This document shows positions 1 to 32,543 of a stretch of 42,741 bases of DNA, piece after piece. Under the pieces are notes generated by a model that was given only the letters and a program-made list of their open reading frames with translations, did not search any database and had not been told where the DNA came from. Origin of the DNA: a virus (Duplodnaviria > Caudoviricetes); IMG/VR virus record IMGVR_UViG_3300010043_000006, positions 1 through 42,741 of that record; one strand, written 5' to 3'. The translations under genes were made by a program, and so were the position numbers. Within the stretch, counting starts at the first letter, position 1, and each line of letters opens with the position of its first letter.

Positions 1-414
1 GAAGAACAGATCCGTCCGCTTCTTCGGCCCTCGGTTGATGAATGTACCAGCGCTTGCCATTGCATTGGCGACCTTGGTAGCAAGCGTCTGCTGGGTCACG
101 TACAGGCATTCTGTCCCCATACCGTTCGGCTTCTGTGCCGCCGTGTACTTCTGGTAAGCGTTAAAGTGCACGCTTACGTCGTAGTCGCGTGTGCGTGAGT
201 TATGGTAGTTGACGATGGTGTTGAGGTTCTGGTTTTGTGACGTCGACGTATTGTCATGGAACACGTCGACGCCAACGCCGGACTGCTTCCAAAGCTCCGC
301 TACTCTGTTAACCACCTTCCTAGCTTCATCAACTTCGTCAAGATAAGGTGGCCGAGGGCTTGACGAAGCGCCACGGATAAGCTGTCCGTGGCCAGAGCTA
401 ATGACAATCTTCAT
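1..414 (-). CDS. N-acetylmuramoyl-L-alanine amidase (Amidase_3) endolysin, truncated at the window edge
   Basis: Not in the ORF track; translated by hand from ATG 414: MKIVISSGHGQLIRGA...LDEVDEARKVVNRV...DVSVHFNA...GTECLY...NRGPKKRTDLFF. Has the Zn-amidase motifs GHG, E and SVHFNA; ATGA overlap with the GH25 stop. Confidence 0.88.
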   Translation of the reverse strand, partial: MKIVISSGHGQLIRGASSSPRPPYLDEVDEARKVVNRVAELWKQSGVGVDVFHDNTSTSQNQNLNTIVNYHNSRTRDYDVSVHFNAYQKYTAAQKPNGMGTECLYVTQQTLATKVANAMASAGTFINRGPKKRTDLFF

Positions 415-1226
415 TTTCCCGCCTCCTTCGCACGCATCCTCTTAAAGGCATCACGAGTCGTCTGCATCTGCTGCGGCGTCAGCACCACTTGCCTGACCTT
501 GACAAGGACGCCGGGCGTGGTTGCCACGACCACTGTGCACTCACCAGCATCCGGCGTCGGGGTTGGCTCAGGAGGCGTCGGCTCGGACTGACCAGTTGCC
601 CACTCTGCCTCAAGCTGCTCGGGCGGCCCGTTACGGTAGCTGTTGACGTCACAGTTGCCAACGCCGTTGATTGAATGTGGACCGGGCCCATACTGGCCGT
701 CGGTGAATTGCCAGAGCCAATAGACTGGCCACACCTCTGTTGGCCACGACGCCGAGTCACTATACTGGCAGAGCCACAAGCGCCGCGCTGACCAGAACTC
801 GTTCGGCGAGTTGGGGATTGCTTCCTTGATGGTGTTGCCGCCATAGACCACGCACTGGTTCGGACGGCCTAGGCGATCCTCGACGCCTTGTATCCACTGC
901 TCGGCCTGTGAACGGCTCATTTTGGCGCCGCCGTTGTCCTCCCAGTCGAGGCAGAACAACTCGTCTGGATCTGGCGCGGCGAACCTCATGAAGTTGTCGA
1001 TCTGGCTCTGCGTATTCGAGCTATCGGCAAAGTGGTATGCTCCCCACTTTAGCCCGGCGGCGCGCGCAGCAGAGCGCTGAGAGACGTAGGTATCGTCGGT
1101 GTAGCTGGTGCCCTGCGTGGCCTTATAGATGACGCCGTGGATACCATCATCCATAACGGCGCTGTAGTCGTCAGCGGGGTCCCAGTGCGACAGATCAATA
1201 ACCATTGGATTAACAGGTTGTGCCAT
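411..1226 (-). CDS. Glycoside hydrolase family 25 lysozyme (endolysin)
   Basis: GH25 motifs IDLSHW, YKATQG, GAYHF, LDWE, LWLCQY, WQFTD, CDVN; Pro/Glu/Thr linker before a short C-terminal segment. ATG 1226 fits the SD better than GTG 1232. Confidence 0.92.
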   Translation of the reverse strand: MAQPVNPMVIDLSHWDPADDYSAVMDDGIHGVIYKATQGTSYTDDTYVSQRSAARAAGLKWGAYHFADSSNTQSQIDNFMRFAAPDPDELFCLDWEDNGGAKMSRSQAEQWIQGVEDRLGRPNQCVVYGGNTIKEAIPNSPNEFWSARRLWLCQYSDSASWPTEVWPVYWLWQFTDGQYGPGPHSINGVGNCDVNSYRNGPPEQLEAEWATGQSEPTPPEPTPTPDAGECTVVVATTPGVLVKVRQVVLTPQQMQTTRDAFKRMRAKEAGK

Positions 1227-1228
1227 AG

Positions 1229-1567
1229 TCACTTCCCCTTTTGCTGTAGCTCTTTCAGTTCCCGTGCCCTCTTGTCTATTGCCTGCATAGCTGCAATGTA
1301 GGCCCGGCGCGCTTTGTTGGCGCCAGCAATGACACGTTGGGGCTGCTCAGTATCGTCCACTGTCCATACAGCGAATAGATGCTGGAGCCTATCTTCGTAG
1401 GCAGCGTCCATTGCCTGCCGATCAAGTTCTACTATGTGTTCTTCATACTGCGGCGAGATTGGTTCCAAAGCCACTGGCCTTGGCTGCGCCATCACATTGA
1501 AGGCAAAGGCAATGAGCAGCAGCGCCAGCAGAGCCAGCACAGCTACTACCCATTGGTACTTCCACAT
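1229..1567 (-). CDS. Membrane-anchored or secreted helical protein next to the endolysins (possible lysis accessory/spanin-like)
   Basis: Probable start MWKYQWVVAVLALLALLLIAFAF (hydrophobic N-terminus) followed by a helical domain; directly upstream of GH25. Confidence 0.55.
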   Translation of the reverse strand: MWKYQWVVAVLALLALLLIAFAFNVMAQPRPVALEPISPQYEEHIVELDRQAMDAAYEDRLQHLFAVWTVDDTEQPQRVIAGANKARRAYIAAMQAIDKRARELKELQQKGK

Positions 1568-1580
1568 TATGGGTCTCACT

Positions 1581-2540
1581 TTAGCTGGAAATATTTGACC
1601 ATGTGGTCCCCCAATAGCTCGCTGCGTCGTTGCCAAGCAAATTGCTGTCGGTAACGCTGATTAGGACATTGAAAAGGTATAGTTCGGCTATGTAGCCGTC
1701 CAAGTGTTGGCTGTTAGTGTTGTAGCAAATTGCCGATGAGGCCGTCGTTATTTGAACGTCGCTGGTTGTAACTGTATTTGCGGTCCCGCCTCCGATATAA
1801 GCCTTGATGGTGGGCCCGGTACCGTCGTAGCGGTGGAGAGCTGCCGCAGTAAATGGAAATGCCACCGATATCGTGACATTATTAGGGGCACCAAACTGGC
1901 CAAAGTTAGCAACCGAGGTAGAGGTGTGTACGCTGCCACTCCACATATAGTTAAAGGTGTCACCAAACACGAGTGGATCGTTTTGGGGGCCCGCGCCAGC
2001 GCCACCGGCGTTCCAGCGAACAACGTAAAATATCGAAAAATTCGAGGCGTTAATGAATGTGCCAAGGGTCGCAGCGGTCATCGTATGGGTGGAGCCGTTA
2101 CATTGCATCGTCCCCTTGGAACTAAGCGCCGTGAGCAGCGCCCCGGAGGCTACAATCTGCGGCTGATTAGCCGCCGTCGCCTGCGTAAAATTGCGCGCAT
2201 TGCCGCTCTGGTCGTACCACGTCGCGACAAAACAATTCGTCGCGGCGCAGAACGTGAGCATTGAGGCGGTATCGAGGTTGCACCCACCCGAAAAGCCGAT
2301 GTTTTGGGTTGCGTTGTCACTAGCTCGGCGCACCTGTAGGGCATTACCGGCATAAGCCGAGCGCACCTTGCGCATGGAAAATATGCCGGTCGGCGCAGAG
2401 GTAAGCGAGTCAACCGGATAAGTGCAGGCTGCTGCACCGGCACCAGCCTTTCCCGGCCCTGGCCAAGGCAGCGACACCTGTGCACTGGACGAAAGTGCAA
2501 GCGCAACGACAAGCAGTAGCGCAGCAAGTAATCGGGTCAT
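1581..2540 (-). CDS. Signal-peptide protein with arabinofuranosidase-B catalytic-like / ConA-LamG lectin fold (putative receptor-binding or fibre-tip protein)
   Basis: Signal peptide MTRLLAALLLVVALALSSSA; motif FSMRKVRSAYAGNALQVRRASDNATQNIGF...VATWYDQSGN...QP typical of AbfB-catalytic-like domains; C-terminal LDGYIAELYLFN is LamG-like; 6 Cys. Confidence 0.65.
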   Translation of the reverse strand: MTRLLAALLLVVALALSSSAQVSLPWPGPGKAGAGAAACTYPVDSLTSAPTGIFSMRKVRSAYAGNALQVRRASDNATQNIGFSGGCNLDTASMLTFCAATNCFVATWYDQSGNARNFTQATAANQPQIVASGALLTALSSKGTMQCNGSTHTMTAATLGTFINASNFSIFYVVRWNAGGAGAGPQNDPLVFGDTFNYMWSGSVHTSTSVANFGQFGAPNNVTISVAFPFTAAALHRYDGTGPTIKAYIGGGTANTVTTSDVQITTASSAICYNTNSQHLDGYIAELYLFNVLISVTDSNLLGNDAASYWGTTWSNISS

Positions 2541-4390
2541 CTGACCACCCGCCAGTTAAGAGTTATTGCACCGGGCGTAATGCTGGCCGAGGTGTTGTTG
2601 CAAACTTTGAAATTCACGTTGTTGGCCGTCGGATAAGGGATGATGGTTAGCATACCGGCGGTGAGGGGAACGTAGCCGGTGACGGCTGTTGGATCGCCGT
2701 TGAACGATGCTGATACGACGTCGGTTGTGGCAACACCGGTGGCCGAGACGGTAACGGCTGTGGCACACGCCGCCGATGCAATGGCACTGGTGCCAAGCGC
2801 TGCGGTGCCACTGGCAACAGTGTAAGTGAGGGTGTTAGTCCCAGTCCCTGTAGGCAGGACAAACGTTCCATTCCCAACTGCTGGACCCTGTAACGTCGTT
2901 GTGCCCGACGTGGAGCCAACAAAGCCTATTGCCCCAGTGCTGCCAGTGGAGCCGACGGACAGGACAGGCGAGGCCCAAGTCAGGTTCGGGCTGGCACCGA
3001 AGGCACCGGAGTTATTGAACTGGACCTGAGTATTAGAGCCAGCTGGTGTCCCACTAGCAGTGATACATCCTATGCCAGTGCCATTGGTGTAGTTAAGGGC
3101 TTGGTTAGTACCACTGCACGACGGCATCGTATTGAACTGTGGAGCGACCACGCTGCTGTTGGTCCAGTTCGAGAATACCGTGTTGGCTGCGACATTAGAG
3201 AGGGTGAACGTCAGAGCCGGGTTGACGGTCGAGCTAGCAACGGACGTGGTGAACAGCGGCGACAAGTTGCCAGCCGAGAACGACTGAACTGTGCCGGTGC
3301 CAGCCGTGATCGTGACGCAGCTGAAGCCGGTGCCGGTGGTCCATTGGAGTGCTTGGTTGGCGGTGCTACACGAGGGGACGCTTAGGTAGCTTGGTGCGGT
3401 GGCTGACAAGCCGCCAAGCAGGGAGTTGGCTGTGGCAGTTGGTAGTTGGGCTAGGGTTGCCGTGCCGCCGATCTGGCTAAAGGTGTAGTCGCCGCTTTGG
3501 GCGACGATGGCGCCAGTGCGGGTAAAGACGCTCGTGACAGGCGAGGCAGCGGTAATGGTGCCGCAGCTAAAGCTGTGGGTCCCAGTGGAGTACTGTAGGG
3601 CGTTGGAGCTACCAGTACAGGCTGGGAGGGCCATGCCGGTGAGAAGGTTAGACGCAGTGTTAGTTGGGTTACCAAGGGCACTGTCAGCGTTAATGGTTGG
3701 CAGCCCACCGCCGCCTCCACCACCTGACACAACGGCGCAGCCAAAGCCGCCACCGGGTACCCACTGGAGCGCTTGGTTCGGGTTGTTGCACACCGGCATT
3801 GGCAGTGCGCTTGGGACGCTGATGTTGCCATAGACGGTGTTGACGCTCGCCACAGGCATCTGTGGGAACGTGGTTTGTCCAGAGATCTGACTAAAGGAGT
3901 AGTCGCCGTTCGCCGAGACAACCGTGCCCGACCGGCCGAACACGCTATTGACAACGGGGTTGACGGTGTTACAGCCGAAGGTGTGGGCCGTCGCGTCATA
4001 GAGTAGGCTCTGCTGGCCGCCGATGCAGTTAGGGATCGTGACACCGGCCACAGTAGTGCCAGTATTCATATAGACTTGGTTCGCCGAGATCGGCGGCATC
4101 TGATTGAAGCCGAGCAGGCTCGGGCCGATCTGCGTGAAGTCGTAGTCGTTAATAGCCGGAACGACTACGCCAGATCGGCCATTCCAGCTACTAACGCCCG
4201 CCCCTGGACCCATGGCGTTCTGCTGCACCCACAATGTTGAGGCTGCCCGGTTAGAGGCGTCGCCCGCCGGTGCCATCGGCACAATGCAGTTGGGGTTGTT
4301 GGAGCCGCAACCCTGAGCGGCGGCTGGGAACGAGGGTACAAGCGACCCAGCCGCCGCCAGAACGGCGACCAGTAGCAGATGTTTACACAT
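2537..4390 (-). CDS. Fibre-like repeat protein with N-terminal signal peptide
   Basis: Gly/Ser/Thr-rich; three VxSxxxRxGxxVxxxxDYxFxQI repeats, five Cys-pair repeats, and the fibre-type motif PAGSNTQVQFNNSGAFG; signal peptide ending AAA|Q. Confidence 0.65.
   Translation of the reverse strand: MCKHLLLVAVLAAAGSLVPSFPAAAQGCGSNNPNCIVPMAPAGDASNRAASTLWVQQNAMGPGAGVSSWNGRSGVVVPAINDYDFTQIGPSLLGFNQMPPISANQVYMNTGTTVAGVTIPNCIGGQQSLLYDATAHTFGCNTVNPVVNSVFGRSGTVVSANGDYSFSQISGQTTFPQMPVASVNTVYGNISVPSALPMPVCNNPNQALQWVPGGGFGCAVVSGGGGGGGLPTINADSALGNPTNTASNLLTGMALPACTGSSNALQYSTGTHSFSCGTITAASPVTSVFTRTGAIVAQSGDYTFSQIGGTATLAQLPTATANSLLGGLSATAPSYLSVPSCSTANQALQWTTGTGFSCVTITAGTGTVQSFSAGNLSPLFTTSVASSTVNPALTFTLSNVAANTVFSNWTNSSVVAPQFNTMPSCSGTNQALNYTNGTGIGCITASGTPAGSNTQVQFNNSGAFGASPNLTWASPVLSVGSTGSTGAIGFVGSTSGTTTLQGPAVGNGTFVLPTGTGTNTLTYTVASGTAALGTSAIASAACATAVTVSATGVATTDVVSASFNGDPTAVTGYVPLTAGMLTIIPYPTANNVNFKVCNNTSASITPGAITLNWRVVR
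3065..4195 (-). repeat. Protein-level repeats in the 617-aa fibre-like protein
   Basis: Type A: VSSWNGRSGVVVPAINDYDFTQI, VNSVFGRSGTVVSANGDYSFSQI, VTSVFTRTGAIVAQSGDYTFSQI. Type B: PNC..SLLY..FGC, PVC..ALQW..FGC, PAC..ALQY..FSC, PSC..ALQW..FSC, PSC..ALNY..IGC. Boundaries approximate. Confidence 0.85.
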
Positions 4391-4736
4391 TGCTATCCAT
4401 CACCGTTAGAGGGTTGTTGACGCCTGTTGAGGCCAAGCACTGCCAAGCACCTTGGCACTCACCCTCGATTGTAACGAACGCGCCTTGATAGACGGCAAAG
4501 CATCCACCAAGGCTCGTCAACGTGGGTACGATGGTTTGGCCGTCTCGATCGAGCGTTGGCGCCACGTAGAGCGTGGCAGCACCGCCGGGGTTATGGAAGG
4601 TGATCCGCACCCTCATGGCGTTGGCCGGTGCCACGACGACTGGCGATGCGCCGATGGCACTAAACCCTTTAACCTTGCCACCAGACGCCGATGAGGCTGT
4701 CTGTGGGCCTCCTACGGCGGCAATTAGGGGCATCAC
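4383..4736 (-). CDS. Hypothetical beta-rich virion-associated protein
   Basis: 117-aa ORF translationally coupled in the late operon; GGAGG SD. Confidence 0.7.
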   Translation of the reverse strand: MMPLIAAVGGPQTASSASGGKVKGFSAIGASPVVVAPANAMRVRITFHNPGGAATLYVAPTLDRDGQTIVPTLTSLGGCFAVYQGAFVTIEGECQGAWQCLASTGVNNPLTVMDSNV

Positions 4737-5251
4737 ACCCTCCGTGCGGGTTTCTCAGTTAGCTGAGCCTGTAGCTCGGCATATTTGGCTTGTAGCTCTT
4801 CAAACTCAGATCGGCTGACCATCTCGGTGGTGGGTGAGGCTACAGTCTGATGGCCATTGGATTTCATCTCGGCGACCTGCTCTTGAAGGTTCATCAGCAG
4901 CCGGTCGCTGTGGCTAATAGCCGAGAACTCGTTGATAGGATCATGCCACTCCGGCCGGTACCTCTCGGTGATGGCCTCGGCCTCTTCGTCGAGCGGCTCC
5001 ATCCCCGGCGTGGGCGGGCCGTCGAAAACGATGTCCCTCGGCTTGCCCTTGCCTTCCCAACAGACGATGATGATGCCATCCTCACGGTAGTTGAAGTCGG
5101 CTTGGTCTTTAGGATCGAGCAGCCTAGGTACCTTGTAAACGAGCCGAGCTTGTCGGCCGGTGTTACGATCGGTTTCCTTGTGCTCCCACTCGGCCTGATC
5201 CTTGCCAATGCAGTTGATGTAGTGGGGTTCGATTAGCTTCCATCTGGCCAT
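4733..5251 (-). CDS. Hypothetical phage protein (late operon)
   Basis: 172 aa, GGAGG SD, C-terminal coiled coil ending KPARRV. Confidence 0.75.
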   Translation of the reverse strand: MARWKLIEPHYINCIGKDQAEWEHKETDRNTGRQARLVYKVPRLLDPKDQADFNYREDGIIIVCWEGKGKPRDIVFDGPPTPGMEPLDEEAEAITERYRPEWHDPINEFSAISHSDRLLMNLQEQVAEMKSNGHQTVASPTTEMVSRSEFEELQAKYAELQAQLTEKPARRV

Positions 5252-5260
5252 TGGGCCCTC

Positions 5261-5689
5261 CTAGATGATGCTGTAGTACAGAACAACGGCGATAGTGGCT
5301 ACGCTAGGCGTTACGCAGACGTTGTACGCTGGGGTGGCCGACGGGGTAGAGAAGAAGGCATAGCCAGAGTGGTCAGCAGATGGCGCCGTATTGGAGACGT
5401 TCATAGCCGGGACTATGGTTCTGGTGTTGGTGTCGCAGGGGGTTGTGGTCTGCTGCCCAGCAGTTATGCTGAAGGTGCCGGTAGCGCCAGAGTTGGTAAC
5501 GTGCCAGCCACAGAGGTTGATATTTCTCCCCGCTACGCCGGTGATCAGGGTCTGGATCGTTGTGGGCCCAATCCCCATAGTGGCGACTTGGTTGCACAAG
5601 ATCATATTTGCTGGGCCAACCTGACCTTGTGGGACGGCGGGGCCTAGCGACAAGAGAAGAGCAGCGACTACCAACCAAAGCTTACGCAT
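5261..5689 (-). CDS. Signal-peptide, 4-Cys beta protein (paralog B)
   Basis: Signal MRKLWLVVAALLLSLGPAVP|Q; AGGAGG SD; aligns by eye with 5699..6097. Confidence 0.8.
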   Translation of the reverse strand: MRKLWLVVAALLLSLGPAVPQGQVGPANMILCNQVATMGIGPTTIQTLITGVAGRNINLCGWHVTNSGATGTFSITAGQQTTTPCDTNTRTIVPAMNVSNTAPSADHSGYAFFSTPSATPAYNVCVTPSVATIAVVLYYSII

Positions 5690-5698
5690 TAGCCCCTC

Positions 5699-6097
5699 CT
5701 ATTGCTGCGAATAGTACACCGTATAGTGAGCAGGGCCGGTACCGGTGACAACAACACACATCCCTGCACCCTGTGGGCCAGAGACTTGGCGGCTGGTGCC
5801 GGTCAGTGAGCCAAGTGCGCCTAGGTCGTACGCCGCTGTTATGTTGAGGGTGTTGGTGCCACAGGTTGCCCCAGCGCCTGTGATAATCTGGAAAGTAGCC
5901 GCAGCAGCGGCCGTCACTTCAAAGCCACAATACGTTACTGCCATGGAAGCGTTTGGGGCTACAACTTGAGTGGTGCCAACGGCGGCTGCGCCGTTGACAG
6001 ACTTGTTGCAGAAGAACTGCTGCGGCCCAATGCCTTGAGCAGGCGCTCCCCCGCATAGCGCGAGTAGGGCAACCAGCGAGAGGAGCGCCGTGCGCAT
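5699..6097 (-). CDS. Signal-peptide, 4-Cys beta protein (paralog A)
   Basis: Probable start ATG 6097 (TAATG overlap with the cement gene): MRTALLSLVALLALCGGAPA|QGIGP...; shares CN, CG[FW]xVT, TFxIxxG, CxTNT and YYS with paralog B. Confidence 0.8.
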   Translation of the reverse strand: MRTALLSLVALLALCGGAPAQGIGPQQFFCNKSVNGAAAVGTTQVVAPNASMAVTYCGFEVTAAAAATFQIITGAGATCGTNTLNITAAYDLGALGSLTGTSRQVSGPQGAGMCVVVTGTGPAHYTVYYSQQ

Positions 6098-6678
6098 TAG
6101 TTGTTGATCGTAATGCCGGGCACGTAACCTGAAGGTGCAGGCACTGTAGCCGTGCCACCCCAAGGCTGGTCGAACCGGTCGATCACGATGCCAGCATAGA
6201 TGGAGCCCAGTGTTGGGGCAGACCCAGCGATTGTGAAAGTGACCTTCAGGAACCTCGGCATTGGTTGGCCGGGGATCTGTCGAGGCACGTCCACGTTGGC
6301 GAGGTAAGCACCTTGCACGAGGTTGGCCAGCACCACAGCCGCTGGGCTTTGCCACATGACTGTGAATGCGCCGGGCTGGTTGGGTGTGGTCGTGGAGTCC
6401 GGCGCCCCTGAGAGGGAGCACGTCAGGCTCGTGAGGGTGTTGAAGGTCGCCGTGACGACAATCAACAGCTTGAGCATCGGGTCGTCGCCAACGCCGATGT
6501 CACGAGCACCACCTTGCGCCAGTGGACCACCTGGATCAGTGGACCGGAGCGTTGCAGGCGGGCTCGGCCAGTTGACGCCGAGGTCAATGATGTTGGTAGC
6601 GTCGCCGGTCGCCGTCGGCGAGTCAACGATGCTAGTACCAACAACACCAGTGAAGGTGAGAAGTCTGTCAAGGATCAT
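6097..6678 (-). CDS. Bbp16-like capsid cement/decoration protein
   Basis: Start MILDRLLTF; motifs TNIIDLG, RDIGVG, PRFLK; immediately downstream of the major capsid gene as in BPP-1-like phages. Confidence 0.8.
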   Translation of the reverse strand: MILDRLLTFTGVVGTSIVDSPTATGDATNIIDLGVNWPSPPATLRSTDPGGPLAQGGARDIGVGDDPMLKLLIVVTATFNTLTSLTCSLSGAPDSTTTPNQPGAFTVMWQSPAAVVLANLVQGAYLANVDVPRQIPGQPMPRFLKVTFTIAGSAPTLGSIYAGIVIDRFDQPWGGTATVPAPSGYVPGITINN

Positions 6679-6679
6679 G

Positions 6680-7732
6680 TTACACCACCCTTGCTTCCGT
6701 GTTGAGGATTGCGTCACAGGTCCTAACAGGGATACCCCGGAAGGTTGTGATCGGCTTACCGTCGAACTCTTCAATTCTGAGCAGGACGTTAGTCTTGTTC
6801 ATAGCTTGAAGGTCGAGGTAGGTGCGGACGACACGGTTGCAGTAGATGACCGTGCGGCCCATATTGGCGCGCACCTCAGGAGTGTCTGAGGTCTGGACGG
6901 TACCAGCGCTGACTGGCTGCGTCGGCATACGATACAAGGCTCGGACGAGGAAGTTGATCAGGTTGGCTGCCGAGACACCGGTGAGGATGGTGGTGTCGAT
7001 GTTGGCGATGCGGACAGCATAACGCCAATCTCTGAGCACCAAACCGATCTCCCACTTGAAGTGGTCACGGTAGGCCTGATAGGTGTTCCCGCCCGAGTCC
7101 TGTACCGGCCACTCGCCCATATCCCGGTGTTGGAGGCCGGTGATCTTGCCCTTCGGGAACGTCGCAAAGAGCGTGTCCGCACCCCAACACACGACCCAAA
7201 TCGATGTGTTGACTGAGGCCGTGCCACCAGCGTCAAGGATGTTAGCCGCCGTTTGTGAGTTGGCTGCCGTGACGGTGGAGTACCGAGGAGCGAGGCCAGT
7301 AAACCGCTCAGGGTTGGCAAACTGGTTGCCGTAGATAAGCGTCTGTGCGACTTGCTGGCTCATGCCTTCCAAGAACGCCTTGACTTCGCTGAGCCTGAAC
7401 TCGGCGGTGTTGCCGTTTAGGTCGGCGATGTCCTTGTCGATCACGGCGTAGGTTTCCAGATTGCCGCACGTGTCGACGATCTGTGCCGTGGTTGACTTGG
7501 CGTTCGGGACGCCGCTGTTGAGCAAGCGCCATGTACCGATCGGCAAGCCTGTCCGAACGGTGGTCTTGTGGCCGGTTGGGAGGTTGCCCTCCATCACCAG
7601 CATGTCTTCCAGTATTTCGTTCGTCTGACTGAGCAATTCGATGATGGTGGCTACACGGTAGCCGTCATCCATGCGTTTGGCCCAGTCACCGTAGGTAAGC
7701 GCAAGAGCGCTACCTGCTAACACTGTTGCCAT
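6680..7732 (-). CDS. Major capsid protein (BPP-1 Bbp17-like)
   Basis: IIELLSQTNEILED, GNLPTGHKTTVRTGLP, FTGLAPRY, LVLRDWRYAVRIANID, FRGIPVRTCDAILNTEARV. Confidence 0.95.
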   Translation of the reverse strand: MATVLAGSALALTYGDWAKRMDDGYRVATIIELLSQTNEILEDMLVMEGNLPTGHKTTVRTGLPIGTWRLLNSGVPNAKSTTAQIVDTCGNLETYAVIDKDIADLNGNTAEFRLSEVKAFLEGMSQQVAQTLIYGNQFANPERFTGLAPRYSTVTAANSQTAANILDAGGTASVNTSIWVVCWGADTLFATFPKGKITGLQHRDMGEWPVQDSGGNTYQAYRDHFKWEIGLVLRDWRYAVRIANIDTTILTGVSAANLINFLVRALYRMPTQPVSAGTVQTSDTPEVRANMGRTVIYCNRVVRTYLDLQAMNKTNVLLRIEEFDGKPITTFRGIPVRTCDAILNTEARVV

Positions 7733-10495: not shown

Positions 10496-11620
10496 TTATC
10501 GTGGACCCATGGGGTGCTTCTTGGCGATCTCTGCGGCAGCTAGAGCTTGGATTTTGGCAGCGGATGCTTGGTTCTTAGGATCCTCAAAGAACTTCTCGGC
10601 AGCTTCGATTTGGTCGTTAGGAACGAGTTGGCCCATGCTGTGCCACTGTTCAGGGTTGCCCATTGTCGTGCGCATGATGTGCCGGACGAGGATTTCGTTG
10701 GGGTCGGCGTCGGAATCCTTCAAGGCCTGCACCTTGGACCGTGCATCTGACCAACGATCGAACATCTTGTTGTATTCTTTGACGGCCTCAGGGTTACGGT
10801 CGAACAGCAGCTGGAGGCCACGGTGGATGGACTCGTGGACCATAACGGACGGAGCGTCGAGCACCTCGTTGTGAGCCTGATTGATGTACATTGGGGTTTC
10901 GTGGATCCGAGCCTCTTTCATCTGCCGTGGTGTCGTGATCTTCTTGACGGGGTCGTAGGCGAGGGTAAAGCCGCCCAGGGTTGTGGCTTGCTTTTGCATA
11001 GAGAAGGCAGACTTGCCCGGATCAAAGCCGAGCGAGGCGATCGGGTCTCGACCGGCGGCTAGGGCGGCCCGAGCGACCACGTTGCCCATTCGCTGCCGGG
11101 CCTCAGGGGTCAGCTGGCTAGTGTCGAAGGTCTTTGGATCGCCGTGGAGGAAGGCTTGTTTGAAGGCTTCTGAGGAAGTCTTGCCTGCTTGGAATAGCGG
11201 TTGTGGCAGCCAGCCGGACTTGCCGGATTCGCCGTATATGCGGACGTTCTGGTCCATGAAGTGCCGTTCCCACGACTTGCCATAGGCGAGCCCTGACTCT
11301 TTGGCGAACAGGGCTTCTTGGGGTGTGGGGTAGTGCTCCTCGCCGCCGAAACCGCCCTCCTTGCCTGAGACGGTCTTGGGCAGGTTCATGTCCCCACCCT
11401 CCACCTGTGGGTTGGGCGGGAGCGGGACTTGACCCGGCGGCGTCTTCTCTGTGCCGTGCCACCAATCGCTCAGCCAGCTGGCTTGGGCTGCTTTGAACTC
11501 GGGGCTGACCAGTCGTCCGTGGTCGTACATCACCCCAGCCGCCATGACGAGGTCACTATCCGACGGCTCCCCTCGTGGTCGGTTAGGCTCGTTAGGGTTG
11601 AGTGGGACGACTAGGGCCAT
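10496..11620 (-). CDS. Hypothetical protein with HExxH zinc-metallopeptidase-like motif
   Basis: VMVHESIHRGL with a downstream NEILVR; coupled into the terminase-portal block. Confidence 0.6.
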   Translation of the reverse strand: MALVVPLNPNEPNRPRGEPSDSDLVMAAGVMYDHGRLVSPEFKAAQASWLSDWWHGTEKTPPGQVPLPPNPQVEGGDMNLPKTVSGKEGGFGGEEHYPTPQEALFAKESGLAYGKSWERHFMDQNVRIYGESGKSGWLPQPLFQAGKTSSEAFKQAFLHGDPKTFDTSQLTPEARQRMGNVVARAALAAGRDPIASLGFDPGKSAFSMQKQATTLGGFTLAYDPVKKITTPRQMKEARIHETPMYINQAHNEVLDAPSVMVHESIHRGLQLLFDRNPEAVKEYNKMFDRWSDARSKVQALKDSDADPNEILVRHIMRTTMGNPEQWHSMGQLVPNDQIEAAEKFFEDPKNQASAAKIQALAAAEIAKKHPMGPR

Positions 11621-11820
11621 TATGCGCCGCCGAGGAGAGTGCGGGTTGCTGTGCCGCCCGACTGTGGCAGGGTGCCAAGCACGGACGCAGTGAACTGCAT
11701 TGAGGGCGATTGGCTCTGGCGCTGCTTAGCGGCGTTCTGCCCGTAGGTTGGTGGATTAGGCGGTGGAGGTGGTGCCACCGGCGCAACTGCCTGCATAGGC
11801 GGCGGCTTCATGAAGCTCAT
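11620..11820 (-). CDS. Small Pro-rich virion assembly protein (T7 gp7.3-like position)
   Basis: Probable start ATG 11820 (ATGA overlap, GGAGG SD): MSFMKPPP...TRTLLGGA; a C-terminal TLLG is typical of small pre-portal proteins. Confidence 0.7.
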   Translation of the reverse strand: MSFMKPPPMQAVAPVAPPPPPNPPTYGQNAAKQRQSQSPSMQFTASVLGTLPQSGGTATRTLLGGA

Positions 11821-12242
11821 CGAAGGTCTCCCTCCATGTAGTCGTGGATCTGCATGTAGCGTTTGAGTGCTTGTTCGTGGGACGGGTAGCTGGGATAGTT
11901 GTCGAGCCCCTCCATCTTGGCTCTCTTGATGGCTTGTTCGTTTGAAACGATCTTGTTGTTCCAGACGGTGGGCAGGACGTAGGTCTTGTCGCCGATACCG
12001 GCGGTGATGGCGCGGAAGGTCGAGGTGGTGCCGTCTTCGTTCTTGACGCCGCCTTTGTGCAGATTGTTGAGATGGTGAAGGTAGACTTTGCGCTCTTGCT
12101 CGTTGAGGCTGAGGTTGGAGCTGGCGTGGTCGTAGTTGGTGCCGAGCCGGTCCGCCCAACTGGGCTCAGGGTCAGGCGGGGCTTGGCCGTCCTTTGGCTG
12201 CTTAACCATCGTCGGCATCAGTTTGGGATCGTCGTCAGGCAC
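11817..12242 (-). CDS. Hypothetical phage protein
   Basis: 141 aa, AGGAG SD, overlaps the TerL stop. Confidence 0.7.
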   Translation of the reverse strand: MPDDDPKLMPTMVKQPKDGQAPPDPEPSWADRLGTNYDHASSNLSLNEQERKVYLHHLNNLHKGGVKNEDGTTSTFRAITAGIGDKTYVLPTVWNNKIVSNEQAIKRAKMEGLDNYPSYPSHEQALKRYMQIHDYMEGDLR

Positions 12243-28914: not shown

Positions 28915-29108
28915 TCGACAGGAGAAGCCGAGACTGTGTCCGCATCAAGGTGTGGAACGAGGACGGCGATCCATTCTTTGTTTACTTCTACGGCCTAACG
29001 GAGAAAGACCTGTGCGAGATTCCCAACCAGTACGTCAGCGCAATGATCAGGCGCCGTCACTTTGAGAGGTGCACATCGTCCCTGTTCACAGTGGAGCAGG
29101 TGCGATGA
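28911..29108 (+). CDS. Hypothetical protein
   Basis: 65 aa, ATGA-coupled on both sides. Confidence 0.6.
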   Translation: MIDRRSRDCVRIKVWNEDGDPFFVYFYGLTEKDLCEIPNQYVSAMIRRRHFERCTSSLFTVEQVR

Positions 29109-30199
29109 TCCTCCTCGTCGGCGAGGCTTGGGGCGAGAATGAAGAGCGTGTGCACGTTCCATTCGTTGGCGCCGCCGGGGTGGAGCTACTGAAGATGCTC
29201 GTTGAAGCCGACATCATCGAATGGACGAATGGCGATGCAGATCTCCTGCATCGCTATTACCGCACCGGCCAGCCCCAGCACCTCGGCCAGATTTGGCTCA
29301 ACCACACCGACGCCGTACGCACTACCAACGTGTTCAACATTCGCCCTCGGTACAACAAGATAGAGAACTTTTGTGGCACCAAGGCCGAAGGTATCGTCGG
29401 TTACCCATCTCTCTTCAAATCCAAATACGTTCGGGCTGAGTTCATCCCCGAACTAGAAAGGCTTGGTGATGAGATCGTTGACCTTGAGCCTGAGCTTACT
29501 ATCTGCCTCGGTAACAGTGCTCTTTGGGCTTTGGCTGGTTCTACAGGGATCAGCAAGCTCAGGGGGACGACTCGTTATAGCACTCATACTGCTACTGGCT
29601 ACAAGCTCCTTCCTACTTATCATCCTGCTGCTGTTCTCAGGCAGTGGGAACTCCGGCCCACGGCGGTAGCCGATCTCATCAAGGCCAAACGGGAGTCCGC
29701 CTATCCTGAGATCCGCCGCCCACACCGAGAAATCTGGATCGAACCCAATGTCGAAGACATACGGACGTTCATCAACACGCATGTGCGCAACTGCCGGGTC
29801 CTTAGCGTGGACATCGAGACTTCTGGCGAAGACGTTACTTGCATCGGCCTCTCGCCGAGACCAGACCTTGCGCTCGTTGTGCCGTTCTTTGACCGGCGGA
29901 AAAAGAACCGCTGTTACTTCCCTGATCTTAAGACAGAGATACTTGCTTGGGATCATATCAAACGAGTTCTCGAAGATCGAACGATCCAAAAGGTCTTCCA
30001 GAATGGAATGTACGACATCGCCTTCCTCTACCGATCCGTGGGTGTGCGAGTCCGGGGAGCCGAGCATGACACCATGCTCCTCCATCACGCACTTCAACCA
30101 GAGAGCCTTAAAGCTCTTGGCTACCTCGGCTCCATCTACACCGACGAAGGCGCGTGGAAAACTGAGCGCAAGACTACAACGATTAAGAGAGACGAATGA
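29105..30199 (+). CDS. Uracil-DNA-glycosylase-like domain fused to a partial 3'-5' exonuclease (N-terminal part of split PolA)
   Basis: UDG family-4-like LVGEAWG..E..PFVG, TNV, CLG..A, PTYHPAAVLR; ExoI VDIET, ExoII QNGMYD, HDTMLLHH; no ExoIII motif. Confidence 0.88.
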   Translation: MILLVGEAWGENEERVHVPFVGAAGVELLKMLVEADIIEWTNGDADLLHRYYRTGQPQHLGQIWLNHTDAVRTTNVFNIRPRYNKIENFCGTKAEGIVGYPSLFKSKYVRAEFIPELERLGDEIVDLEPELTICLGNSALWALAGSTGISKLRGTTRYSTHTATGYKLLPTYHPAAVLRQWELRPTAVADLIKAKRESAYPEIRRPHREIWIEPNVEDIRTFINTHVRNCRVLSVDIETSGEDVTCIGLSPRPDLALVVPFFDRRKKNRCYFPDLKTEILAWDHIKRVLEDRTIQKVFQNGMYDIAFLYRSVGVRVRGAEHDTMLLHHALQPESLKALGYLGSIYTDEGAWKTERKTTTIKRDE

Positions 30200-30573
30200 A
30201 AATCAAACGTGACGCCTTCCTCTACTACGACGGTACCCGACGTGACTTTGCTCAGTGCGGCTCGTGCTGGCTGTTCACTAGCAAAGCGCGCTGCGTTGTG
30301 CTCCAAATCCCCGTCAACGCCGAAGACTCTTGTGGCTATTACGGCAAGGGTACATGGCATCCCGGCATCAACGAAGCTGACTACCCAGTGTTCACCCGTG
30401 AAGAGGTCGGCTACGTGCGCCGTCAGGTGCGGTGTGAGAACTGTGCCCATTTCGACGCCGGGCGCAGCGTCTGCTACCTATTCGAGACCCTCAACAACGA
30501 ACTGGAGCTATTCGACCTCGATGTTAAAGTCATGCCCAGAGGCTGCTGCAATGCCCAAGTACCCAAAGCCTAA
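30196..30573 (+). CDS. Cys-rich protein with two HiPIP-like 4-Cys repeats
   Basis: CGSCWLF..RCVVL..VNAEDSCGYY and CENCAHF..VCYLF..VMPRGCCNAQ. Confidence 0.6.
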   Translation: MKIKRDAFLYYDGTRRDFAQCGSCWLFTSKARCVVLQIPVNAEDSCGYYGKGTWHPGINEADYPVFTREEVGYVRRQVRCENCAHFDAGRSVCYLFETLNNELELFDLDVKVMPRGCCNAQVPKA

Positions 30574-30721
30574 GCCCGATCCACATAAGTGGGAGGAACT
30601 AGAGACCGTCCGTAGCAACGGCGGCCACATCCGCCTTCGATGCAAGAAGTGCAAGAAGGTCGGGTTCAAGGACATCGAGACCGGCATCATCAAGACCTTC
30701 GCCGAAAGGTGTGAGAAATGA
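30551..30721 (+). CDS. Small zinc-finger-like protein (56 aa)
   Basis: Probable start ATG 30551: HKW...RCKKC...C. Confidence 0.55.
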   Translation: MPKYPKPKPDPHKWEELETVRSNGGHIRLRCKKCKKVGFKDIETGIIKTFAERCEK

Positions 30722-31056
30722 CACGCGAGGAAGCACTCCAAGCGCTATCCCGCCGAGCGAAAGACAGGAACCTGTTCTTCTCATTCAAGGGAGTAGCGCC
30801 GACGGTTGAGACCAACGAAGACTATGATGGAGAGTTCGCCGCATTCACCCAATACTTCGGCGGCTTCAAAACTATCAACGACTACGGCCAACGGGTTGGC
30901 ATCGAGAAGTGGGTAATATACGACGAACAGTGCGAGACTCTAACCAAAGAGTTGATGGAACGACGCGACTTCCAGCTGTCTGGCAAGTACGAGTATGCCA
31001 GTCAGATGCTTGCCACAACCATCCCGCAACGCGCCAAGTGGGGACGCCACCGGTGA
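30718..31056 (+). CDS. Hypothetical protein
   Basis: 112 aa, coupled on both sides. Confidence 0.65.
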   Translation: MTREEALQALSRRAKDRNLFFSFKGVAPTVETNEDYDGEFAAFTQYFGGFKTINDYGQRVGIEKWVIYDEQCETLTKELMERRDFQLSGKYEYASQMLATTIPQRAKWGRHR

Positions 31057-32543
31057 AGATAATCGCCACCCACAATTCCGATCCCGCAACCTACACGCCC
31101 ATGGAAAGAGAGTGGGTTTACAATGGTATCGACGCCTGTATCACCGGAGAGATCCTCAATGTTCTGCTCCCACAGCTGGACAACCACACAGCAGCCACAT
31201 ATAGCTTTTCGAGAGAGCTACAAGGTCCAGTGCTCGAAATGCGGCTGCGTGGCGTTCGAATTGACCATGCACGTAAATCAGCAGTTATCGACGAATACTA
31301 TGATTTACTTGAGCGCCTTGAGCAACAACTTGAAACAGTTGTGCTTGATGGCGTCGGCCTTCCTTACTTCAACTGGAGATCGAATGACGACAAGAGGGCC
31401 CTCTTCTACGACGCTCTCGGCATTCCCGTCATTCGGCGACAGGGGCGACCGACGGTAGACATCGCCGCACTCGAAAAGATCCAGACCGAGTACCTGATCG
31501 CCCGGCAGATCTGTGCACATCTGTTGATGATGGGCGAACTGCAAAAGAAGATCCAAGTCCTTAAGACGGAGGTAGACAAAGATGGCCGTATTCGTACTAG
31601 TTACAATATTGCTGGTACTAACACTGGTCGGTTTAGCAGCAGTTTCAGTGAGTTTGGTACTGGTGGGAACCTCCAGAATGTCGAGGAGTCACTCAGATCA
31701 ATCTTCATCGCCGACAGGGGAATGAAGCTGGCCAAGTTCGACGCCAAGAGCGGAGAGTCCTATGTCGTCGGCGCGATCGAGTGGAACCTCTTTGGGGATG
31801 GACGCTATCTGGACTCATGCGAGTCGGGTGATCCCCATACTGCCACAGCCCGTCTGTGTTGGCCGAACCTACCTTGGACAGGCGATCTCAAGCAAGATAA
31901 GGAGATCGCCAAAGGGCCGGGTTATCGGCATTACTCTCGTCGTGACATGTGCAAGAAGCTTGGGCACGGTTCGAATTACCTCGGCCAGCCAAGGACGATG
32001 TCAACTCAGACGAGAATCCCCATCTCCAAGGTCGAGGAGTTCCAGCGTATCTACTTCAACATCTACCCAGCCCACCAGAAATGGCATGCTCACGTGGACG
32101 ACCGCCTCAGGCGAGACGGTTACCTTATCAATCTCACCGGGCGTAAGCGGTGGTTCTTTGGACGTCGAGGTGACGACTCCACGCTCAGGGAAGCGATCGC
32201 CTACGATCCGCAGGGTTCACTTGCCGACATCGTTAATAACGGCCTTATCAAGGTTTGGCGCCAAAGAGCGGCAAGCCTCTACATGCACGACCACGACGCG
32301 ATCACGGTCCAGTATCCAGAAAAGAAAGAAGACGAAGTCATCCCGAAGATCATAGAGCAGCTCAAGTATCCGATTGCTCTGGCAGGCGGCCGGACGCTTG
32401 AGATTCCCTATGACTGCGTAGTGGGGTGGAACAGGGGAGCATACCATCCGGTCGACAACCCGGACGGCCTACGCGACTATACTCCGGGTGATGAAGGGAG
32501 AAGACGTACGCCCGATATACCTTTGCTACACAGGAAACAGTAG
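31053..32543 (+). CDS. polA: DNA polymerase family A, C-terminal part of split PolA
   Basis: Probable GTG start at 31053; ExoIII YNGID, TGRFSSS, NLQN, motif A FDAKSGE, motif B RDMCKKLGHGSNY, motif C HDA. Confidence 0.93.
   Translation: MKIIATHNSDPATYTPMEREWVYNGIDACITGEILNVLLPQLDNHTAATYSFSRELQGPVLEMRLRGVRIDHARKSAVIDEYYDLLERLEQQLETVVLDGVGLPYFNWRSNDDKRALFYDALGIPVIRRQGRPTVDIAALEKIQTEYLIARQICAHLLMMGELQKKIQVLKTEVDKDGRIRTSYNIAGTNTGRFSSSFSEFGTGGNLQNVEESLRSIFIADRGMKLAKFDAKSGESYVVGAIEWNLFGDGRYLDSCESGDPHTATARLCWPNLPWTGDLKQDKEIAKGPGYRHYSRRDMCKKLGHGSNYLGQPRTMSTQTRIPISKVEEFQRIYFNIYPAHQKWHAHVDDRLRRDGYLINLTGRKRWFFGRRGDDSTLREAIAYDPQGSLADIVNNGLIKVWRQRAASLYMHDHDAITVQYPEKKEDEVIPKIIEQLKYPIALAGGRTLEIPYDCVVGWNRGAYHPVDNPDGLRDYTPGDEGRRRTPDIPLLHRKQ

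Follow-up and report, generated by a model that had tools for sequence, protein, structure and literature searches.

Does every part of a tailed phage virion come from the cytoplasm, where tailed-phage assembly is taught to take place as a whole? The question is raised by a 42.7-kb linear virus record, 87% complete (IMGVR_UViG_3300010043_000006; its whole stretch of 42,741 nucleotides is called the window), in which four genes downstream of the capsid and cement genes encode proteins with predicted Sec-type leaders and even numbers of cysteine residues. On balance it is probable that these proteins follow a route through two compartments, comprising export, disulfide-dependent folding and docking onto the virion at lysis. 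The genes of the region are listed below (lengths in amino acids, aa).

6680..7732, minus strand: major capsid protein of the BPP-1/epsilon15 type, leaderless (PF20911, E 3e-134)
6097..6678, minus strand: Bbp16-type cement protein, leaderless (PF21190, E 2.6e-7)
5699..6097, minus strand: protein A, 132 aa, putatively exported single jelly roll, predicted leader 1-20 (leader heuristic, homologues and model)
5261..5689, minus strand: protein B, 142 aa, putatively exported jelly-roll paralogue in the same family as A, non-canonical cleavage site
4733..5251, minus strand: conserved, charged 172-aa protein, leaderless (40 family members, none with a leader), marking the start of the fibre slot
4383..4733, minus strand: leaderless 116-aa all-beta protein, likely a cytoplasmic fibre adaptor (gene coupling and model)
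2537..4390, minus strand: putatively exported fibre-like protein, 617 aa, predicted leader 1-25 (phrog_16348, E 3e-8)
1581..2540, minus strand: putatively exported AbfB-N/lectin-like cargo, 319 aa, six Cys, in an exchangeable slot (PF09206, E 3e-12; phrog_10356, E 3e-19)
1229..1567, minus strand: 112-aa protein with an N-terminal hydrophobic segment and a charged, Cys-free body, either spanin-like or exported in some other role
411..1232, minus strand: GH25 endolysin (PF01183, E 2e-30)

The four open reading frames (ORFs) singled out in a sequence-only reading of the window are all present, on the minus strand. For 5699-6097 the mechanically listed ORF opens at a GTG further upstream; the homologues begin instead at the ATG at 6097, which overlaps the stop codon of the cement gene. 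Leaders were called with a heuristic of our own, which requires a net basic start, an uncharged 9-mer with a hydropathy of at least 2.2 and a small-X-small site. By this rule all four proteins carry the Sec-type leader that had been claimed for them, with a Lys/Arg start, an uncharged 9-mer (mean hydropathy 2.9-3.4) and a stretch of small residues. The small residue followed by Gln, described for all four, is present in three of them, but in 5261-5689 a Pro stands before the first Gln, and the cleavage point of this protein is therefore uncertain. As controls, the heuristic passes 4 of the 816 windows taken from inside cytoplasmic proteins, none of the 305 taken from the mature parts of the four proteins, none of the sequences in eleven core late families (including the cement, 0/72, and the 172-aa family, 0/40) and none of 11 T7-anchored tail fibres.

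The mature cysteine counts of 4, 4, 14 and 6, all even, were recovered as claimed. The cysteines are at positions 30, 57, 79 and 114 of protein A (with Cys15 in the leader), 32, 60, 85 and 125 of protein B, 28, 35, 122, 140, 201, 218, 258, 276, 341, 358, 425, 442, 542 and 597 of the 617-aa protein (with Cys2 in the leader), and 39, 87, 98, 103, 147 and 272 of the 319-aa protein. No lipobox is found on any of the four; Cys15 of protein A follows Leu and is missing from most homologues. The four genes do lie after the capsid and cement genes, but not contiguously, as the leaderless genes 4733-5251 and 4383-4733 intervene. A further gene with a leader- or transmembrane-like segment and no Cys, 1229-1567, comes after the four, directly before the endolysin gene. 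With a hydrophobic N-terminus ending in Ala-Gln and a charged body, its product is spanin-like; a lipobox-bearing partner was looked for in the near-identical relative L001 and was not found.

The conservation of these features was followed in relatives, which are encoded in 595 uncultured viral stretches; the best 80 (83-100%) were examined. Individual loci of relatives are given by number (L001 onwards). Proteins A and B form one family (25% identity), and the four cysteines of B occupy the same alignment columns as those of A. In the relatives' loci a leader is present on 36 of 36 family members. Among the best 120 of the 740 relatives of A at E ≤0.001, 109 have a leader by the strict rule and 114 by a loose one; the 6 leaderless sequences are fragments or mis-called starts, one being possibly truly leaderless. 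All four cysteines are kept in each of the 116 rows of this set that span the positions. In a 32-row alignment of the family 3 rows lack both the first and the second cysteine, and no row lacks just one of the two; bonds C30-C57 and C79-C114 are therefore predicted in A.

Conservation of leaders and cysteine pairs extends beyond this family. Among the 68 loci with downstream genes, 62 have a leader gene no more than two genes from the cement gene; some relatives have seven leader genes in a row, and L092, L096 and L110 have none. Dereplication at 70% of the 414 complete downstream proteins left 247, of which 91 bear leaders, and a small residue followed by Gln is found in 80 of these 91. Cysteine counts are even in 82 of the 84 leader-bearing proteins that contain Cys, compared with 44 of 107 leaderless ones (Fisher p 1e-18); for fibre-like proteins alone the numbers are 30/31 and 21/44, respectively (p 3e-6). 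In a tree of 33 clade rows and 6 outgroups the leaderless L092 joins the window lineage with support 97/95, which suggests module swapping; the label of L162 in this tree is a heuristic error. Judged from the homologues, the set of leaders and cysteine pairs is real, conserved and selected, and its parts are of known folds. The homologues strongly support export and disulfide formation of the four proteins, and it is highly probable that they are exported and oxidized by Dsb enzymes.

Three more leader-bearing families, with 25, 18 and 17 members, occupy the post-cement slot (L085:2602-3075, L127:2476-3120 and L127:3117-3569). A 748-aa protein with 16 Cys (L136:6208-8454) has a leader that looks twin-arginine-like rather than plain Sec.

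The 617-aa protein is fibre-like in composition and company. It contains 2.8% charged and 24.5% Ser/Thr residues, has a low-charge repeat shaft and shares its slot with members of fibre families; by itself it matches only an unannotated PHROG (phrog_16348, E 3e-8). Its 14 cysteines fall into seven local pairs, five of which lie in a repeated hairpin motif, one at the N-terminus and one in the C-terminal domain. Close relatives of 550-647 aa keep all 14. The C-terminal domain is found again in many phages; of 35 distinct carriers that were examined, 29 have it together with a leader and the Cys pair, several of the remainder being mis-called frames.

Directly preceding the fibre gene, and overlapping it by 8 nucleotides, is a 116-aa gene (4383-4733) that is absent from the sequence-only reading. 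Its leaderless product is predicted to be all beta (predicted local distance difference test score, pLDDT, 86). A lead to the N-domain of the PRD1 P5 spike (0.89; 32% of members; 1/10 agreeing) was too weak to use. The gene was found in 78 loci, from which 61 distinct next genes were read with a looser leader rule (hydropathy 2.0 plus small-Gln). One N-terminal motif, matched by no Pfam family, is common to 53 of these 61 genes and missing from 8. The motif-bearing proteins comprise 48 with a leader and exactly two motif cysteines, four that are leaderless and have none, and one with a mis-called start. Two of the leaderless post-adaptor proteins, in L226 and L263, match tail-fibre PHROGs. On this sequence evidence the same slot, partner and motif serve both cytoplasmic and exported fibres. 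Because it precedes mostly exported fibres and, in a few loci, leaderless ones with the same motif, the leaderless 116-aa protein is likely a cytoplasmic fibre adaptor.

A second anchor domain behaves in a comparable way. Where it is fused to long fibres, 9 of 9 proteins are leaderless; where it is encoded on its own, 5 of 6 of the genes that follow have a leader (one truncated row excluded). The coupling to an adaptor and the splitting of the anchor would both be expected if an exported fibre docked onto a part made in the cytoplasm. One extra post-cement leader family is similar to the beta-sandwich in the cytoplasmic anchor domain, with a weak PF20944 match. For the 172-aa protein (4733-5251) no Pfam or PHROG match was found.

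The sequence-only reading had cast A and B as the adaptors of the exported fibre. This assignment did not hold, because the family also turns up where the long fibres have no leader (relatives L108, L115, L118 and L147); to judge from this distribution, the paralogues form a post-cement module of their own and are not adaptors dedicated to the exported fibre. The model of A (pLDDT 84) is an all-beta single jelly roll, with fold matches to the STIV turret (Z 8.7), Ena1 (8.4), the HFTV1 turret (8.3), XepA (7.8), the KHP40 cement (7.7) and Ena3 (7.5), while Foldseek returned PirA and nucleoplasmin folds with weak E-values. The predicted fold fits capsid decoration, without proving it. The cement protein is a possible base for the exported jelly rolls; profile comparisons of A with Bbp16 cement and with the 116-aa adaptor revealed no similarity. 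No match to A or the 617-aa fibre was found among cultured phages, nor did their profiles match any solved structure by sequence. In the Atlas both small proteins are found among unnamed viral clusters.

The 319-aa protein had been described as an AbfB/LamG-like glycan-binding tip. It does appear to be an AbfB-N-like, exchangeable cargo, but the likeness is to the first quarter of the model only, and its glycan binding is something we infer. The PF09206 match covers residues 56-128, equivalent to profile positions 19-92 of 315, and about 70 residues are matched to AbfB in the Protein Data Bank (PDB). An identity as a GH54 alpha-L-arabinofuranosidase B was rejected, as the full catalytic domain is not matched. 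The protein also matches phrog_10356 (E 3e-19), which is annotated 'virion structural protein', and, in actinophages and cyanophages, proteins labelled as minor tail or structural. Among the best 120 of 254 AbfB-N homologues, 15 of the 17 with a leader contain a local Cys pair, compared with 4 of the 103 without one (p 1e-13). In L080 and L083 unrelated bodies of 749 aa and 1028 aa replace the 319-aa protein behind a similar N-terminus, much as in receptor-binding modules. A locus search with the 319-aa protein gave no further relatives.

These observations may be combined in a single assembly route. The host Sec pathway would export the four proteins during late infection, with cleavage of their leaders. 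Dsb oxidation is an established trait of the diderm periplasm, and folding with disulfides would be carried out there by the host Dsb enzymes. At or after lysis, once the endolysin step has opened the cell, the proteins would dock as outer appendages onto virions built in the cytoplasm. In this process the 617-aa fibre would bind the leaderless 116-aa adaptor through its conserved mature N-terminal motif, the 319-aa lectin-like protein would serve as swappable host-binding cargo, and the two jelly rolls would form a separate capsid-surface decoration or turret layer beside the cement protein. Docking on the virion is rather likely, and, given docking, we would by a slight preference place the proteins on the head rather than the tail.

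One of the closest known parallels is found in the gp090-gp094 region of Cellulophaga phage phi10:1 (KC821618), where a leaderless 116-aa gene is likewise followed by leader-bearing genes, gp091-gp094, with leaders ending in Ala-Gln. All four products pass the leader heuristic and are annotated in the GenBank notes as structural by tandem mass spectrometry (MS/MS); the record has no remark on leaders. Unlike the window phage, phi10:1 has an HK97-type head, long-tail genes and a Bacteroidetes host; the likeness described here is one of gene layout and leaders.

Several points weigh against the two-compartment route. The presence of the four proteins on the particle, their retention in the periplasm and the way they find the particle at lysis are gaps that we infer across. 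L001, the near-identical relative, already has a tail fibre that is T7-anchored and leaderless, and does not require the exported set in that role; this separate fibre leans toward an adaptor at the head, or toward a branch on that fibre. The four leaderless post-adaptor fibres represent three lineages only, and family members are not independent. As the families are related, the parity value of p 1e-18 overstates independence, and the p values are optimistic. The leader calls rest on a heuristic with some misses and false calls, and in family A the leader identity (36%) is only modestly below the mature identity (46%). Whole-protein parity is weaker in the leader-bearing AbfB-N homologues (12 even, 5 odd). 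Generic jelly rolls, among them the non-virion Ena pili, XepA and PirA, tie with one another as fold matches of A (Z 7.3-8.7). Finally, gp091-gp094 of phi10:1 are Cys-poor (2, 0, 2 and 0), as known from the GenBank record alone.

The alternative that survives best, although it is fairly unlikely, is that the proteins are exported and disulfide-folded and never join the virion, but self-assemble, in the periplasm or after lysis, into free fibres or soluble lectins, such as Ena-like polymers, decoys, or matrix/biofilm-anchoring or receptor-masking factors that aid the progeny. It is hard to see in this case why one and the same leaderless adaptor should be followed by exported fibres in some loci and by leaderless ones in others, all sharing the N-terminal motif, why the anchor splits off when the fibre is exported, or why a fibre-coupled cytoplasmic partner gene should exist if the two do not meet on the particle. 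Free fibres would be in keeping with Ena1 as a tied best fold match of A (Z 8.4, root-mean-square deviation 3.8, 99 aligned), with the separate leaderless tail fibre, with the exported GDSL, pectate-lyase-like, BNR and NosD-like cargo added in relatives, and with Bdellovibrio, in which exported fibre trimers on cells are described in the available part of PMC10769870.

A second alternative is moron-like conversion of the host surface, by which the envelope of the lysogen or infected cell is remodelled to exclude other phages. Membrane genes of the O-antigen-ligase family (PF04932, Wzy_C) within the leader cluster of three relatives (L120:13557-14669, L159:5213-6253 and L163:12264-13139; E 3e-5 to 8e-9) recall serotype conversion in epsilon15. 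The genes at issue here, however, are co-oriented and translationally coupled in a late operon, between the cement and lysis genes, and none of the four products has a lipobox or membrane anchor. Moreover, tyrosine integrase (PF00589) and resolvase (PF00239) were each found in 0 of 5 records, four of them at least 90% complete, plasmid-type lysogeny being outside these searches, and Wzy_C was found in 0 of 5 records, namely the window and four others. As no tyrosine integrase or resolvase was found, the clade is likely lytic, and surface conversion is most improbable. The Wzy_C proteins might act in glycosylation of the exported proteins, which are rich in Ser/Thr, or else modify the O-antigen; a locus search with the L159 protein gave no further relatives.

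Equally improbable is a role of the N-termini as hydrophobic docking or tether helices of cytoplasmic structural proteins, with disulfides formed by air oxidation after lysis as suggested for a siphovirus tail tube in the available part of PMC13576161, because, the non-canonical site of 5261-5689 notwithstanding, most leaders end in a small residue and Gln, the basic-hydrophobic-small pattern is kept while the leader sequence varies, and Cys pairs occur only with a leader, which air oxidation does not require.

The two-compartment route can also be compared with better-known systems. BPP-1, epsilon15, BcepC6B and the Caulobacter phage JessA share with the window the backbone of portal, scaffold, capsid, Bbp16 cement and tail genes, but the cement gene is not followed by a leader gene in JessA or BcepC6B. 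In BcepC6B, gp19 (L160:20959-21125) is leader-like, lies after the tail fibre and is annotated 'membrane-localized' (55 residues examined). A leader-bearing gene is also present in the tail region of a more distant BPP-1-like phage, a Saccharibacter prophage (L170:12851-14626); one of these two phages is cultured.

Filamentous phage pIII and pVIII are virion proteins with cleaved leaders, and pIII has periplasmic disulfides. Filamentous phages, however, assemble at the membrane without lysis and from membrane-anchored proteins, unlike a lytic head-tail phage. The Bacillus endospore appendages Ena1 and Ena3 (PDB entries 7A02 and 8PDZ) are spore pili with inter-subunit disulfides. They resemble A in being small disulfide-containing jelly rolls (Z 8.4 and 7.5), but the Cys pair of A is predicted from co-loss to lie within the subunit, and A has no Pfam match. 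The HFTV1 turret (8QPG), the STIV turret (4IND) and the KHP40 cement (7DOU) are likewise single jelly rolls (Z 7.7-8.7 to A), with only 8-12% identity to A and a generic fold. In HFTV1 the turrets are appendages of the head for which binding to host glycans has been proposed, and signal peptides and disulfides are not mentioned for them in the available part of the source (PMC12494034).

The MAT fibres of Bdellovibrio, as far as the available part of PMC10769870 describes them, have signal peptides, phage-fibre-like trimers, disulfides and swappable adhesive tips. They are cellular adhesins with a conserved 130-aa N-terminal domain, whereas the window proteins are encoded by phage late genes with a cytoplasmic partner. 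An S74 domain is found in none of the four window proteins, and, in the same part of that source, 8 of 21 MATs lack it as well. The accessible text on tail-tube disulfides (PMC13576161) guesses at host DsbA or air oxidation and contains no mention of signal peptides. The claim that phiCbK fibres have been described with signal sequences is not supported in the available part of PMC3556154, and exported fibres are absent from the portions at hand of PMC13001222 and PMC11924767. A search of the literature, subscription papers and supplements being outside its scope, turned up no report of tailed phages that export parts of their virion. This agrees with the proposal that the system is an undescribed one, and the export route appears undescribed for tailed phages.

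The late operon of the window, on the minus strand, comprises the terminase, the head-tail connector, a Bbp19-like gene, the scaffold, the GP7-type capsid gene, the Bbp16 cement gene, the region in question and the GH25 endolysin gene. With its GP7-type capsid, Bbp16 cement, Bbp19 and head-tail connector all present, the window phage is, on gene content, a BPP-1/epsilon15-like podophage. Its capsid protein is 48-57% identical to those of cultured phages (the cultured kin are BPP-1/epsilon15-like, all below 60%). Judged by the sequencing runs that best contain its sequence, the phage is from soil; no RNA run is listed among the runs containing the sequence. Related contigs fall in Acidobacteria, Alphaproteobacteria and other bins, with possible misbinning.

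Further features lie outside the export module. Two tandem lysins, the GH25 muramidase and an amidase-like 416-aa protein, are encoded partway through the structural operon, ahead of the tail genes (window 1-1232 (-), L001:14231-16296). Between terminase and portal, at 10496-11620 and 11817-12242 (-), two genes have no family matches; a HExxH motif in a 374-aa protein of this pair suggests a zinc peptidase or an ejected protein. DNA polymerase A is split over two genes with small genes in between (29069-32543 (+)); one encodes a uracil-DNA-glycosylase-like part with a 3'-5' exonuclease, the other the polymerase domain. In six relatives (L087, L120, L152, L153, L156 and L158) a gene for 105-166 aa, HNH-endonuclease-like by eye, lies between the capsid and cement genes.

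Taken more widely, the evidence is tipped slightly in favour of a large clade of lytic soil podophages in which the capsid, tail and adaptors would be cytoplasmic and a disulfide-locked outer layer of jelly rolls, fibres and lectins would be periplasmic, this layer being possibly glycosylated in some members of the clade by a phage O-antigen-ligase-like enzyme. Assembly would be triggered by lysis, and fibres would switch between the two routes by gain or loss of leader and cysteines and by splitting of the anchor. The clade contains a minimal pair for this switch, in which the leaderless 116-aa adaptor precedes a fibre that is either exported or cytoplasmic and has one N-terminal motif in both cases. 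If true, a last, extracytoplasmic step coupled to lysis would be a new principle of phage assembly. In that case many phage genes with leaders would have been wrongly classed by annotation pipelines, as morons or membrane proteins. Phages could in this way use disulfide-stabilized adhesins suited to soil, and immature particles might be kept off the dying host.

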